Shown here: in pieces, positions 5,063 through 30,879 of the stretch
Position numbering within the stretch: position 1 is the stretch's first letter
How the letters are laid out: each line of letters opens with the position of its first letter
Translations under genes and position numbers: made by a program
Origin: a virus
Taxonomy: Duplodnaviria > Caudoviricetes
Length of the DNA: 36,302 nucleotides
Virus record (IMG/VR): IMGVR_UViG_3300038674_000376
Location: 1-36,302 of that record
Strand: one strand, 5' to 3'
The notes under the pieces: model-generated
What the model was told of the DNA's origin: nothing
What the model saw: the letters and a program-made list of their open reading frames with translations, nothing else
Database searches by the model: none

Positions 5063-5962
5063 TTAATCTATTTCATCATCATCGTAATTATACGGTACTG
5101 TCACGTACTCATCTTCATCAATGGTATTGTCTACTTCATATCCATCATCATCTTGTGTAAGTGATTCTAAATATTTAACATCCAACCATTGTAATATTTC
5201 TTCTTTATATAATAAACCTTCTTGTGATTTCAATTCATCATAAATTTCAGAAATCACATCACTTTTTGTATGTAGCATATCTTTTTCTTTTTCAATTTCG
5301 ATAGTAATACACTTATTTTCAACATTGTAATTATCATTTAAATAAGAACAATTATATTGTTTTTTATCAACTCTACTTGGACCACCATGCCAATGACCAT
5401 AAAAATGAGCTTTAAAGTTAAGCTCTTTGCAACGATCATTTAGGTATTCATTGTATGTTGGTGAATCATGTGATAATAAAATATCAACATCATTAGGAAT
5501 ATCCTTAAACCATTCTATACACTGACTAGTAAACGTTGGAGAATCATATCCAGAATCTTCAAATGCCCATTTACTTATACCATAACCAATTTTATTGATA
5601 TATGGTGTACCGTAGAATTTAAAATCTTTGTATGTATAAGATTCATTAACTAACAATATTAATTTATTATTTGTTAATTTAGCTAACTCAGCTTTGAATA
5701 CGTCATACTCCTTAAACGGATCATTGTGATTATATAAATGCTCAATAAGAAAATCATGATTACCTGGTATTACAAATACTTTATCACAAGGTAATCCATT
5801 AACCCATTCAACAAATCGTGTAGTCCACCATTTACGAGATGTTTCTAAGTTGCGTTGATCATTCAAATTAATAACATCTCCACATATACATAGTACATCA
5901 CATGGTTTAATATCTATCTGTGATATAGCGCCATGTATATCACTAATTGCTGTTATTTTCAT
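5063..5962 (-). CDS. Calcineurin-like metallophosphoesterase with acidic tail
   Basis: SDIHG, CGD, PGNHD, SHD and GHWH motifs. Confidence 0.9.
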   Translation of the reverse strand: MKITAISDIHGAISQIDIKPCDVLCICGDVINLNDQRNLETSRKWWTTRFVEWVNGLPCDKVFVIPGNHDFLIEHLYNHNDPFKEYDVFKAELAKLTNNKLILLVNESYTYKDFKFYGTPYINKIGYGISKWAFEDSGYDSPTFTSQCIEWFKDIPNDVDILLSHDSPTYNEYLNDRCKELNFKAHFYGHWHGGPSRVDKKQYNCSYLNDNYNVENKCITIEIEKEKDMLHTKSDVISEIYDELKSQEGLLYKEEILQWLDVKYLESLTQDDDGYEVDNTIDEDEYVTVPYNYDDDEID

Positions 5963-5978
5963 AGTTTTTTAAAAAATT

Positions 5979-6000
5979 AAGGGGTTATTACTAACCCCTT
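5979..6000 (-). terminator. Intrinsic terminator-like hairpin
   Basis: AAGGGGTTA/TAACCCCTT stem, followed by a T-rich run on the - strand. Confidence 0.6.
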
Positions 6001-6007
6001 TAATTAT

Positions 6008-19599: not shown

Positions 19600-21630
19600 T
19601 GATTCAACTCCTGATGGAGTCGCGATTATAACTAATTTAATTAACACTAAAAAGAGGTGCAAACACTGTATTTTGTATCCACTGGTAATTAATTCACGAC
19701 GCCATTGTCGCTCGCTTTAAGAAAACTTTGAAAACGAATTATATTACGATGTACCCATTCAAGGGATAACAGTGTTGCAATTCAAATTCTTTTGATATAT
19801 TTCTGTAAATTTTCTGAAATACATTTGAAAAATATATATTATAGCCAAATCAAAACAACTTACTAGAACGTAGTGTTTTACACTACTCTGCATGCTCCCT
19901 TTCGGACACTTTACTCATTAGACGAATGAGTCAGCAGTACTTCACTTATTTATCCTTATACTATTTTGCTTCATGTTCGAGATTTATTTTATAACGTATC
20001 GCACATTGATATAAATAATACCTAACTTCCGTTATTTTTAGTTATCACTTTTCATACCATATATCACGTTAAGCAATATATAGGGGAATCCAATGGTAGG
20101 ATATACTAAGCCCATCCGAAAAACACGTATCGTGTAAAGCTAAACTATATGAAATTATCGGTGAATTTTACTTCAACGGTCGTTTAATAAAACGTTACCA
20201 AAATCCTTATATAATTGCTGTCAATCTTTCATGACACCCACAATTATAATGCTTTATCGAGCACTTTCGAGGTCCTAAATGTGATTAAATTGAATGTATT
20301 TTTGGATTTCCACCAATCATCCCTAATGAGGGGAATCAGCGATCTTTTTCGACAAATATGTTGCGCATATTTACGTAAAAAGGTTCAATGGGTTGCAATA
20401 CTATAATGTCACATTACTCCAAGGCCGCATCAGTATATCGATCGTGTGGATATATTTATCCTAGCGGGTGACTTCCTTGCATTTATTTGCTTTGTTTTAG
20501 CTGGTTGCTTCAGCGTCCCACAGAGGTTTTACGTTCTTCTGATTCTCAGTCAGCAAGCTACCTCTATTGCAATCATATATATACTTACTTTATCTTGGAG
20601 TAGATAATCTGTTATATATACTACGTGCTTGGCTTTAATTTCGATCCGATTCAGGATGTTTCGGGAACCTTGTTTCCATTTGAATGAGTTTGGAGAACTG
20701 CTTTTTATGCTTTTGCGCTGTTTATATCATATTACAACAATATATGATATACCAATATCCAGTAATAATGCGTACTCAGATCGCAGAGGTTGATTATTCA
20801 TAGGTTAATATTACCTTTATAGTCGTATAAATCAACAAATGGACGACTTTATTAAAAATTAATTACAAGTTCACCATGCATCTTATATCTCACACTGACA
20901 TATACGATACACTGATTGTTGCAAATCTAAAATATTAAACAAGTATTTGACACGTAATTTACTTCTCAGATACTAACTCTAACGTTCGTATCATTACGCA
21001 TAGGTTTGTCACCTAATCCAGTTAACCTGTCATATAGCTTACATACAACGTAATACTATATGGGTCATAGCTACTCAGCCATGTCTTTTTTAATATTTAA
21101 TGGTGCTACTAATTTTTAATGAAACTCCTTCATAAAAGTAGAGTATTTAAACTGCGAAACACTGTCTAAACTAGCCCAGCTGGCTACTACTTTGAACACT
21201 AAGTTGTTGTTTTTATATACTTTTTATCGCATAATGGGGGCTTTGGACACTCCCTGGAAGACGCTTCACGGTCTGTAGTTTTGGGCCACTCGTGTTGAAT
21301 TCCTTTTTGATTCATCTTATGATTAAGAAGCGAATTCTATAGAGGTAAACGATACCCCTTGAGTTTTTTAGCCGGTGGTTCCGGACTTACGTGAAATTCA
21401 TTATAAGCTAATCGCCAAACGGTTCTCATTGATACTCATAACATGGGCCAACTCTCACTCTCCCATTTTCTTAATGCTTTTTCAGTAAAAAACAATAAAT
21501 ACTACATTAAGTTATCATAGTAATTACATTATCGTTGATAATCTTTCCTATCCTGTATTGCTTTATAATCTATTATAACTGATCAGGTATATAATAAACC
21601 TTTGATTATTTATAGCATTTATATTCCGAT
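19600..21630 (-). ncRNA. ~2 kb ORF-free, densely base-paired region: candidate very large structured RNA (or RNA cluster)
   Basis: No - strand ORF >=60 aa inside; more than 20 hairpins, long-range stems and a predicted pseudoknot (see findings). Strand inferred from flanking genes and GNRA loops. Confidence 0.6.
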
Positions 21631-26160: not shown

Positions 26161-26230
26161 TGGGATAGAGCCGGACTCGAACCGGCGACCTTAACTTTTA
26201 CATTACGCTCTACCCCTGAGCTATCTATCA
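26161..26230 (-). ncRNA. tRNA-like RNA with truncated anticodon arm and encoded CCA
   Basis: GATAGA/TCTATC-CCA, GCTC-AGGGGTA-GAGC D arm, GCCGG-TTCGAGT-CCGGC T arm; anticodon arm only 14 nt (TAATGTAAAAGTTA). Confidence 0.75.
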
Positions 26231-26231
26231 A

Positions 26232-26456
26232 GGACACTTTATTTTACTAGGGTGATAGTCCAGACCCCGAGATTACTTTTAGGCACTCAGCCTAGTGTAA
26301 TCATTGATTAACATTTTGCCAGTTATGGCTTTATTGACCTATTCTATTTCACAATGTAGCAATCAAATGCCTATATGCCCCGTTTTTTAATGTTACTTGT
26401 GGAGCATGAGGTATCGAAACCTCGTCTTACTACTGATTAATAGACCTAGCAGTCAA
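26232..26456 (-). ncRNA. ssrA: Circularly permuted (two-piece) tmRNA
   Basis: Acceptor piece ...GTAGTAA-GAC-GAGGT-TTCGAT-ACCTC-ATGCTCC-A (ends 26400); 18-nt spacer; coding piece starts GGGGCAT (26381) giving G3:U70; ATAACT then GGC resume codon, tag GKMLINDYTRLSA-TAA (26320-26279); downstream pseudoknot. Confidence 0.85.
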
Positions 26457-26461
26457 TTTCT

Positions 26462-27288: not shown

Positions 27289-27302
27289 AAAGTTTAATTA
27301 AA

Positions 27303-27437
27303 AGTGATATTTGTGCATATTTGTGTATCTTATTTTGCACTACCCCCTTTCCTTCGTCTAATTATCTCATAAGAGACATTGCCGTTGAATAGCCAGCGTA
27401 TCGCTACGTTAGGGTTCTGGGTTTTTAAATATCACTA
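27303..27437 (-). ncRNA. Candidate structured leader RNA
   Basis: 10-bp closing stem AGTGATATTT/AAATATCACT enclosing TAGC/GCTG and TGTCTC/GAGATA hairpins. Confidence 0.45.
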
Positions 27438-27476
27438 GATTTGGGATTGACCACCATTTTGTAAAGTTTTAATTAT

Positions 27477-28334: not shown

Positions 28335-28475
28335 GACTACCTGATTTTTACGTCCGCACGATCAATAATAACAACGTTCGATTCGAAATCATTTGCTAGC
28401 AATTATTGTTATTATATACGCCCCACAGGTTTGTCATCTTCTGAAGACTATATCTATTCTCACGAACCGATATAG
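28335..28475 (-). ncRNA. Candidate multi-stem structured RNA
   Basis: CTATATC..TTC-GTGA-GAA..GATATAG hairpin; nested GAC/GTC, ACCTG/CAGGT, CGTA/TGCG and ATAATAACAA/TTGTTATTAT stems. Confidence 0.55.
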
Positions 28476-28947: not shown

Positions 28948-29199
28948 CTATTTAATCGTGTCTCCAATATTAATATTGAAGAATACGTGAGCTTTCACGT
29001 AAACACGATTCTTTGATTTAGTTATTGGGTTTTCTACTATTAAGAACTCCTGATTAAAGAGTTCACCCTTCCTAATTACAACACAATTTTTATAATTATG
29101 TTTAAGTTCAATGTAATTTTTGGGAGTGTTGTTATGAACAACAATTGGTATACCCAATAAGAGTATACCAATTATAATCCCGGACAAGAATTTTTTCAT
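28948..29199 (-). CDS. Small membrane-anchored protein
   Basis: N-terminal TM segment, C-terminal IGDTIK; stop TAG immediately followed by TAA. Confidence 0.75.
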   Translation of the reverse strand: MKKFLSGIIIGILLLGIPIVVHNNTPKNYIELKHNYKNCVVIRKGELFNQEFLIVENPITKSKNRVYVKAHVFFNINIGDTIK

Positions 29200-29214
29200 A
29201 CCACAAAATTTTTG

Positions 29215-29341
29215 TTATCTAAAATGGATTCGAACCATTATATAACAATCAAGCATCATGATTATTATGTTTTCCCTGTATCAAATTTTGATACCCGTAA
29301 CCATTGTTTTACAAACACAATGTGGATTAAACTATTAGATA
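29215..29341 (-). ncRNA. 127-nt tRNA-like RNA with D-loop replaced by a two-hairpin insert and a 10-bp anticodon stem
   Basis: TATCTAA/TTAGATA acceptor, TA linker, GTTT/AAAC D stem, AATGG-TTCGAAT-CCATT T arm, A discriminator. Confidence 0.75.
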
Positions 29342-29643
29342 AATAATAAATTACAATAATACTTCACACTAGCTACATGTTTCATATTATTCCAGTTATG
29401 TTTTGTTGCTAATGCGGCTACATAACAAGCGAGTATTTCACACTGTCGATCAAACAGTGTTCTTACGATTATCCTTATTCTAAAATATGATTTCTTGGGA
29501 CAATAATTTTCATAAAGAATATCATAGCTTACTCATTTCATATTTTAAAATATCCAAAATATTGGTAATACTTCAGATTTTTTTCGGATTAGCACTTCCC
29601 CACCTTTACCAATAGGTTGGAAGTTAATGGAAAGATTATTTTT

Positions 29644-30879
29644 TCAAATCTTATCCTTTATTTCTTTTAATTTCTTTAAATATTTGGTATCAATTGGCAA
29701 TTGGTATCTTGCACAATTAATTATATGTATAAGTATCAACATCTGATATATGTAATCAGTATAATTTAAACTAACCATACAAAAACGAAACTCAACGGTG
29801 TTAAAACGATCATTCCAACGCATATTATCTACGAAAAATCCAAAATATTGTGTATTGATACCTAGATCAATTTCAAAGATATCACACAATAGTTTAAAGT
29901 TATCTATAGTTAATTTTGTTGCATTGTTATATATATCCATCGTACGAGGTTTTCTATTATTCTTGTTATGGAATTTGGTATCAGCTTCGTTTAATACACC
30001 ACAGTCTATATGCATATGTACTGATGAATTTTTCGCTAGTTTGTCATTTTCTTTCATATATTCTAAAAGAATATACAATCCTTTGAAACCAGCAATACCG
30101 TTCAATCGTATACGATTTTCACGTAAACGCCCTGCATGATCTCCATCATATCCTGAATCAAATGATATACAACCATTTTCTAGTATTCTATGTTGAATAT
30201 TATCTGGAGTTTTAGTTCCATCATATTCAATTTCAATACCAACGTTGATGTAGTTTTTACGCATTGATGTAATTTTCCTATTATATGCTTTGTTAAGTAA
30301 TTGTACAAATTCTTTTAATTGTGCAATAAACTTATTTTTACACTTTAACCAAAGTTTAGCATCTTTTATATTGTCGAACATTGGTATTACGATATATATA
30401 TCCCTAAAAAACAGTGTATTCAATAATCCTTCAAAATAGCTAACAGAATGCGGTAAATAAATATTATCTACATTGCGTCCCCAACGTTCAAAACTAAATA
30501 ATTTATATCGATTTAAAACTTCACGTTTAAGTGTTTTCATTTTATTCATCAATTTAAATAATTCATTTTCTTCATAACTATGCAAGTTAAAGAACATTTC
30601 ACCTTGGATTGATGCATTTAATTTTATAGGTTTTTTTTGTTTACCCGCTTCTAATAACATATTTACATTAATAGAAGAAAATTCCGTTATTAATCTCTCT
30701 ATACTTTTTGTTTTTGGTTTTCTCCAACGTACATCAGGATTAACAATTTTTTCAGTTTTATATGACCATAGTGAATTTATCACTTGATCACAATGACGTT
30801 TGTTACTCTGTTTTGCTTTAAACAAAGTAAGAGCTGTCGGTGATGTCATCATCGCAGCGAGTAAGTCATCTTTCCACAT
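29644..30879 (-). CDS. Putative amidoligase (COOH-NH2 ligase type 2-like) domain protein
   Basis: VGIEIE, RENR, SSVHMHID and TVEFR motif order in the C-terminal half. Confidence 0.7.
   Translation of the reverse strand: MWKDDLLAAMMTSPTALTLFKAKQSNKRHCDQVINSLWSYKTEKIVNPDVRWRKPKTKSIERLITEFSSINVNMLLEAGKQKKPIKLNASIQGEMFFNLHSYEENELFKLMNKMKTLKREVLNRYKLFSFERWGRNVDNIYLPHSVSYFEGLLNTLFFRDIYIVIPMFDNIKDAKLWLKCKNKFIAQLKEFVQLLNKAYNRKITSMRKNYINVGIEIEYDGTKTPDNIQHRILENGCISFDSGYDGDHAGRLRENRIRLNGIAGFKGLYILLEYMKENDKLAKNSSVHMHIDCGVLNEADTKFHNKNNRKPRTMDIYNNATKLTIDNFKLLCDIFEIDLGINTQYFGFFVDNMRWNDRFNTVEFRFCMVSLNYTDYIYQMLILIHIINCARYQLPIDTKYLKKLKEIKDKI

Follow-up and report, generated by a model that had tools for sequence, protein, structure and literature searches.

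A 127-nt RNA body with the shape of a tRNA is predicted at positions 29215..29341 on the minus strand of the window, the whole 36,302-nt stretch of phage DNA analyzed here. Folding and comparison of relatives show that this predicted body stands at a fixed slot behind an amidoligase-like gene, with stems that covary and arms that vary freely across 11 phage lineages; because the D loop and anticodon arm vary while the stems covary, the conserved part is the tRNA body and not the insert in its D loop. The reading ranked first, to which an even chance is assigned, is that the body is a non-decoding tRNA-shaped end domain that would set and protect the RNA ends of a cassette comprising the gene, a non-coding spacer, and the body. 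This reading is favored because ten other lineages hold the body at the same slot while the arms vary.

The window is a 36-kb phage fragment, and its own record is 36% complete. Its DNA polymerase shares 54–63% identity with its counterparts in the top-ranking uncultured crAss-like phage records, of which two are filed under Crassvirales, Suoliviridae. Fourteen runs with a wastewater or bioreactor label contain near-identical DNA, and one of these may be the source.

Predicted fold and parts of the body

The body has the following parts, in tRNA numbering where applicable; the window represents lineage A, and the other lineages are described in the next section.

29215..29341, minus strand: 127-nt RNA body of tRNA shape, from position 1 through discriminator A73
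29335..29341, minus strand: 5′ strand of the acceptor stem, paired over 7 bp to 29216-29222, U1-A72, seen in fold and covariation
29334-29333, minus strand: U8-A9, directly after the acceptor 5′ strand
29329..29332, minus strand: D stem 5′ strand, partner 29269-29272, same letters in lineages A–D
29273..29328, minus strand: 56-nt D loop, with A14-A15, a 3-bp closing stem, a three-way junction, and A21
29302..29322, minus strand: insert hairpin 1, 6 bp with a 9-nt loop
29295..29301, minus strand: junction linker, 7 nt
29278..29294, minus strand: insert hairpin 2, 7 bp with a 3-nt loop
29243..29267, minus strand: extended arm at the anticodon position, 9 bp, loop UGAUGCU at 29258-29252
29240..29242, minus strand: variable linker, 3 nt, common to lineages A–E
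29223..29239, minus strand: T arm, 5 bp with consensus T loop
29212..29222, minus strand: acceptor 3′ strand and discriminator A73, CCA not encoded

The cloverleaf is the minimum-free-energy fold of the body (−28.3 kcal/mol, z −2.42, equalled by 3 of 200 shuffles), and it contains every helix of the original prediction at the same positions. Pair probabilities are 0.73–1.0 in the acceptor stem, 0.56–1.0 in the D-loop hairpins, 0.87–1.0 in the anticodon arm, and 0.70–0.97 in the T arm; the weakest helices are the D stem (0.48–0.60) and the 3-bp stem closing the insert (∼0.5). An alternative fold, in which the D stem takes a second partner within hairpin 1, is less stable by 5.3 kcal/mol. When a tRNA descriptor is allowed a long D loop, its matches in the window are the body and two canonical tRNAs, with none in 400 dinucleotide shuffles. 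CCA is considered not encoded because position 75, two bases past the discriminator, differs between strains. The core contacts of established tRNA anatomy, U8-A14, A15-U48, and A9-U12-A23, would all be possible in the body, and the GG of the junction linker is a candidate partner for the T loop. An anticodon-like reading of the hairpin 1 loop, with two possible registers, was dropped, as it is present in no relative.

Finder-missed phage tRNA-like genes are usually taken as pseudogenes or intron carriers. The body escapes the standard finders, as had been expected: ARAGORN makes no call, and Rfam 15 does not report it as a tRNA at E ≤ 1 or E ≤ 10. The anticodon stem was originally counted as 10 bp, a length that it reaches only if A26 pairs with U44; in the tRNA register it has 9 bp, with A26 and the 3-nt variable linker. 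Its loop does lack U33, having G33 in that place. The claim that this is not a decoding tRNA is supported by G33, C37, the over-long arm, and the odd loops of relatives at the same slot, whose anticodon loops have 4, 6, 9, or 30 nt or are a GAAA tetraloop.

The cassette and its relatives

Body, spacer, and gene lie on one strand together with further structured RNAs downstream, and the body is flanked on both sides by same-strand genes.

29644..30879, minus strand: amidoligase-like gene (glutamine synthetase/YbdK fold), 411 aa, the full-length form of which is always followed by the body
29342..29643, minus strand: structured non-coding spacer, ∼300 nt, between the ligase-like gene and the body
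29349-29437, minus strand: spacer motif shared with L276 (5374-5466), L272 (5332-5418), and L349 (2927-3013)
28948..29199, minus strand: 83-aa ORF with hydrophobic N terminus, beginning 16 nt past the discriminator
28339-28448, minus strand: hatchet ribozyme (Rfam, 84 bits), 0.8 kb downstream of the body
27302-27450, minus strand: RAGATH-9 RNA (Rfam, 90 bits)
26279-26457, minus strand: circularly permuted tmRNA, missed by ARAGORN (Rfam tmRNA_permuted, 25.6 bits, E 0.017, below gathering)
26162-26230, minus strand: second odd tRNA with shrunken anticodon arm, right behind the tmRNA (ARAGORN tRNA-???, Rfam 45 bits)
20486-20552, minus strand: sub-threshold Rfam match, GP20-b (E 0.004)
5955-6004, minus strand: sub-threshold Rfam match, preQ1 (E 0.26)

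The distance from gene to body is 303 nt in the window. The spacer is itself structured (fold z −3.47, with none of 100 shuffles as good), and no terminator-like site is found between 29644 and 28948; a sigma-70 promoter scan returned 31 matches, about the number expected by chance (22.9 ± 5.1). Spacer and body are probably carried on one transcript. The motif common to the spacers of lineages A–D is a 7–10-bp stem around a UUGCCAA-like loop, followed by UGG and a hairpin; it has no Rfam match, and RNAalifold yielded no consensus fold for it. Neither the fixed link to the upstream gene nor the 300-nt non-coding spacer was mentioned in the original prediction. The downstream order of hatchet ribozyme and RAGATH-9 RNA recurs in lineages B and C, with a permuted tmRNA as well in C; several hatchet ribozymes are present in relatives, and this wealth of other elements that cut RNA in the region counts in favor of the end domain. 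In the permuted tmRNA of the window the 3′ acceptor/T piece precedes the 5′ piece and G3-U70 is present, and L272 and cr114_1 have a called tmRNA at the syntenic slot.

Neither Pfam nor PHROG gives a match for the 411-aa protein, and the 35 aligned members are without a Pfam match as well. Its Atlas neighbours are Amidoligase_2 clusters, with PF12224 in 20–92% of members, and its predicted C-terminal half weakly resembles the folds of glutamine synthetase, YbdK, and Pup ligase (Foldseek E ∼0.01), the top VIA rows being glutamine synthetases (Z 8.2, rmsd 4.0, 172 residues). Invariant columns are ExE, R-E-R, HxH, and ExR, which may correspond to the ligase motifs. An Atlas search with the N-terminal half and a PDB sequence search yielded nothing usable, and the protein showed no RNA-binding domain. 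The gene is patchy, being present in 2 of 45 records chosen by polymerase similarity, and a short 267-aa form that lacks roughly residues 43–200 has no recognizable body in the two loci seen.

Homologues were reached via the upstream 411-aa gene, and their loci were scanned with a covariance model and by eye. The body follows the full-length gene in all 57 loci having at least 430 nt downstream, a set of 11 lineages that includes many duplicates of lineages B and C; one further locus lacks downstream DNA. The proteins of these lineages are 24–42% identical to that of the window, and in the relatives the body lies ∼220–520 nt behind the gene, the non-coding stretch ends in the body, and the next gene is close. 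Linker, D stem, A26, and the 3-nt variable linker are common to lineages A–D. Lineage B, from gut phages, has a single D-loop hairpin and a 6-bp arm with the loop UGAUGCU, which occurs in the window and in none of the other nine lineages; lineage C, which includes the RefSeq Crassvirales genomes cr114_1 and cr125_1, where the body is unannotated, has a 4-nt loop; and in lineages D and E the D loop is short and an anticodon is absent. The 3′ side of hairpin 2 in the window is similar to the lone D-loop hairpin of B and C. A normal anticodon loop is kept in only 2 of the 11 lineages.

In the six more distant lineages a leader hairpin abuts position 1 of the body (L284, L285, and L351–L356). This hairpin has 11 matches in 2.15 Mb, all 11 at the body slot, and together with further spacer blocks common to these contigs it suggests a longer conserved RNA. 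Among the six are a tRNA-His (L352) and a tRNA-Pro-like gene, both callable by ARAGORN, two lineages whose anticodon loop carries a 30-nt insert, and two in which the loop is a tetraloop or has 6 nt. In the protein tree B, C, D, and E fall together and the six leader-hairpin lineages form a separate group; the order of insert gains and losses is not inferable because the tree leaves A unplaced.

When B and C bodies were sought by DNA pattern alone, the gene was in the locus for 21 of 22. The exception, L322 (IMGVR_UViG_3300045988_058582), has a clean 1.85-kb deletion relative to L262 that takes the ligase-like gene, the spacer, and the first six bases of the body (acceptor 5′ strand), and is either a real mutant or an assembly artefact. 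A BLASTN search with the element against 50,697 phage records returned nothing, a strict pattern had no match in IMG/VR, and relaxed patterns matched at least 120 and 33 stretches, with no member of the amidoligase-linked family among the matches listed. Single-protein locus searches of IMG/VR with the 140-aa and 411-aa ORFs found none. Searches of 49–50 polymerase-related records by DNA, pattern, and single-lineage covariance model gave no relative, blanks that say little because the model also missed lineage D in G018. The relaxed cloverleaf descriptor is unspecific, giving spurious parses in AT-rich DNA and mis-parsing five lineages, and degenerate bodies were therefore accepted only with a shared-sequence anchor, either the leader hairpin or acceptor/D-stem identity.

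Phage tRNA-like genes of unrelated sequence with 20–60-nt D-loop inserts were also observed on other contigs:

L083, 391-501: D-loop-insert gene
L093/L110, 391-502: D-loop-insert gene
L109, 391-498: D-loop-insert gene
L124, 394-517: D-loop-insert gene with CUA anticodon
L182, 165-397: D-loop-insert gene
L236: D-loop-insert gene
L238, 590-703: D-loop-insert gene
L321, 1484-1571: D-loop-insert gene, with a 3-nt variable linker as well

A further set of phage tRNA bodies carries inserts in the anticodon loop with a recurring CAGCAA-like motif (L035 133-258, L072, L121, L167, L172, L188, and L254). These inserts presumably resemble skipping-rope RNA, and Rfam gave tRNA matches only for these bodies.

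Across the hand-parsed bodies of the 11 lineages, 229 of 236 stem pairs are formed, and most positions of the acceptor and T stems show several types of pair. An alignment of A, B, and C contains 17 pairs changed on both sides (a result reached in none of 500 shuffles, with 0–3 such pairs in slid controls), although it comprises eight model-fitted sequences and such alignments favor their own structure. Homologues with acceptor and T stems, in the absence of which the original prediction was to fall, are thus found, and their stems covary. The D loop ranges from 7 to 56 nt, the anticodon loop from 4 to 31 nt, and the discriminator is A or C; the consensus T loop is absent in 6 of the 11 lineages, and neither a consistent identity set nor a conserved surface sequence is found across all 11. 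Complementarity between D and T loops within a lineage, exemplified by UGAG/CUCA in lineage B, gave P = 0.04 for all 11 lineages and P = 0.07 for the six with altered T loops in a test that is post hoc, uses related sequences, and is marginal; it suggests that the tRNA elbow may be preserved. The region of the 9-nt loop is the same in A and B despite diverged stems and proteins (33% identity).

Variation among strains is also lower in the body. Four DNA runs from four studies contain 25 variable sites in a 581-nt stretch, none of them within the 127-nt body (P = 0.002). In the metagenome relative L258 the body differs at 1 of 127 positions and the spacer at 18 of 302 (Fisher P = 0.018), the sole change in the body being U-A to U-G in hairpin 1; against third codon positions (17/412) the difference is not significant (P = 0.088). 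In lineage C the variable columns are 1 of 91 in the body versus 73 of 275. Purifying selection on the body, as indicated by these counts, supports the end-domain reading. No insert-free allele is found among the four DNA runs and L258.

RNA evidence consists of library contigs from small shares of four runs (X15–X18), which give no indication of habitat, cannot show RNA ends, and may contain carried-over DNA. Long contigs are present in the spacer in three of the four runs. Two contigs from different studies end at 29273-29275 with no loose end, at a point where DNA contigs go on and ∼60 nt short of the predicted 3′ end, and one of the two reaches back to the stop codon of the ligase-like gene. 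Because both cross the predicted RNase P site, they represent uncut molecules or inefficient cutting. The contigs leave 29152-29272 uncovered, a gap that proves nothing, and the four RNA runs contain no splice joint at their partial coverage. As a weak hint, these contigs fit a stable RNA of ∼430 nt ending in the body.

Possible roles of the body

RNase P, 3′-trimming nucleases, and the enzyme that adds CCA read the acceptor/T helix and the D/anticodon stack. The end domain is ranked first because the helices read by these processing enzymes survive, whereas the parts read by synthetases and the ribosome are lost; normal decoding is excluded because of G33, C37, and the long arm. In the proposed mechanism the phage would cotranscribe gene, spacer, and body; host 3′ trimming and CCA addition would leave a stable end at A73 and release the message downstream; and RNase P would occasionally cut at position 1, which would detach the 127-nt RNA from that of the spacer. 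On this view the D-loop insert would not be cargo; it would be bulk that is tolerated at the outer elbow and is kept since it must fold away from the core. A role of the tRNA ends in processing and stability, as first proposed, would be compatible with the pattern of conservation. The accompanying idea that the RNA displays extra domains as a decoy or aptamer is not supported for the family as a whole, in which the two-hairpin insert was seen only in the window lineage, two lineages have one D-loop hairpin, and eight have D loops of 7–12 nt. Counted against the end domain are the loss of the T loop in 6 of the 11 lineages and the hairpin abutting position 1 in six, both of which could hinder RNase P, the two lineages with ARAGORN-callable tRNAs (His, Pro), the RNA-library contigs across the predicted RNase P site, and the non-significant comparison with third codon positions in L258. 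The identical loop of A and B hints at binding as a role beyond processing, and a processing signal alone leaves the tie to one gene unexplained.

That tie is better accounted for, together with the A/B loop identity, if the body, by itself or together with the spacer RNA, is the partner, substrate, or decoy of a protein and its L shape is what is selected, a possibility that is ranked second and considered less likely than the end domain. The protein would most simply be the adjacent amidoligase-like one, or otherwise a host tRNA-binding defence or repair factor. The gene is patchy yet always accompanied by the body when full-length, its short form lacks the body in the two loci seen, all but one of the 22 pattern-found B and C bodies have the gene beside them, and D/T-loop complementarity suggests that the elbow is kept. 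Nevertheless, the protein has no detected RNA-binding domain, the 11 lineages have no surface sequence in common, the elbow test is post hoc and marginal, and the linkage may be simple cassette co-transfer. A Ro60/TROVE gene is likewise absent from the window's own record (0/1, 36% complete) and from five related records (0/5, three of them at least 90% complete). A more specific form, in which a mobile ribonucleoprotein cassette would combine a ligase of glutamine synthetase fold, having an extra N-terminal domain, with a 300–500-nt RNA that ends in the body and acts as substrate, carrier, or antitoxin-like partner, is considered doubtful.

Three further alternatives concern the origin or decoding capacity of the body. 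A decaying tRNA pseudogene with accumulated insertions might be suspected from the near-canonical tRNAs at the slot in two lineages, the odder forms elsewhere, and the one B contig without the acceptor strand, but it is improbable: all stems pair, the changes are compensatory, and the body is less variable than its flanks, so that covariation largely refutes it. It is very improbable that the body is a tRNA gene with introns, from which splicing would remove the inserts and leave a decoding tRNA in the manner suggested for the tRNAs of Lak phages. Conserved inserts in phage tRNA genes are on record (10.1101/356790), the D-loop insert is flanked by sequence resembling a short D loop of the normal kind, and U33 and a CAU triplet result if positions are counted from the D stem; however, two separate precise excisions would be needed and the 3-nt variable linker would stay, the insert boundaries differ among lineages, the insert-free D, E, L285, and L351 still lack an anticodon loop, and neither an insert-free allele among strains nor an Rfam intron match is seen. 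Finally, an atypical decoding tRNA with a long stem and 3-nt linker like those of tRNA-Pyl, reading His codons via AUG/GUG at positions 34–36, is highly improbable: although lineage B has a 6-bp stem, a 7-nt loop, a 3-nt linker, and C73, GUG stands at the triplet in one B strain, and L352 is a tRNA-His, the window has G33, C37, and a 9-bp stem, A–D lack G at −1, other B strains have AUA at the triplet, and C, D, and E lack such a loop.

Comparison with known systems

In the literature searched and in Rfam 15, no description of amidoligase-linked tRNA bodies was found; the candidate list of PMC10690425 (10,006 RNAs), the Lak intron table, and the original RAGATH papers lie outside this scope. 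The apparent novelty is the fixed cassette with the amidoligase-like gene, because the D-loop-insert design recurs on unrelated phage contigs; the cassette appears to be new. Its slot amounts to a natural experiment in which 11 lineages retain the stems of a tRNA and drop or remake its loops, and it shows which tRNA parts a phage needs when decoding is not needed. The presence of lineage C in cr114_1 and cr125_1 makes the RNA directly open to testing in vitro and in metatranscriptomes from the gut. Should the RNA be a partner for the adjacent enzyme, it would give a first handle on the function of phage amidoligase-like proteins, and if the ribonucleoprotein reading is true, it would represent a new type of enzyme–tRNA-mimic system in some of the commonest gut phages.

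The body shares with canonical class I tRNA (RF00005) a 7-bp acceptor stem, U8-A9, a 4-bp D stem, A14, a 5-bp T stem, and a consensus T loop. It departs from that class in having a 9-bp anticodon stem in place of 5 bp, G33 and C37 in place of U33 and a purine at 37, a D loop of 56 nt in place of ∼7–11 nt with G18-G19, and a variable region of 3 nt in place of 4–5 nt or a long one. With tRNA-Pyl, as described in PMC7609411, it has in common an elongated anticodon stem and a very short variable region; tRNA-Pyl as described there decodes and has a linker of one base, a D loop of 5 nt, and no T-psi-C, in contrast to the two-base linker, huge D loop, and consensus T loop of the body.

Lak megaphage tRNA genes have been reported to carry 'enigmatic' introns, with insert-free alleles existing for one tRNA (Devoto et al., 10.1101/356790). 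Those genes resemble the present case, as far as that account describes them, in that they are phage tRNA genes whose conserved additional sequence is handled wrongly by gene finders. Unlike in the Lak case, the insert here sits in the D loop, no insert-free allele is seen, and an anticodon loop is missing from D and E, the nearest relatives without an insert.

YrlA of M. smegmatis is cleaved by RNase P and acquires CCA (Chen et al., 2014; PMC4201824). It is, on that description, a tRNA-mimic RNA beside a protein gene, phages included, that has D, T, and acceptor parts without decoding. YrlA adjoins Ro60 and has a Ro60-binding stem (PMC4201824), whereas the body has an amidoligase-like neighbour and true tRNA ends. 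The YrlA model (RF02553) has no match in the window or its slot-mates.

The t-elements, of which mascRNA and menRNA are animal analogues, offer a further comparison. In plant mitochondria they direct cleavage by RNase P and RNase Z (Forner et al., 2007; PMC1920247), and, as characterized in that report, they resemble the body in being tRNA-like with a non-canonical cloverleaf, in lying inside a longer transcript and between genes, and in serving as a proposed RNase P and 3′-processing signal. For the phage RNA cleavage is a prediction, and unlike the t-elements the body has the full four stems and is linked to one gene in 11 lineages.
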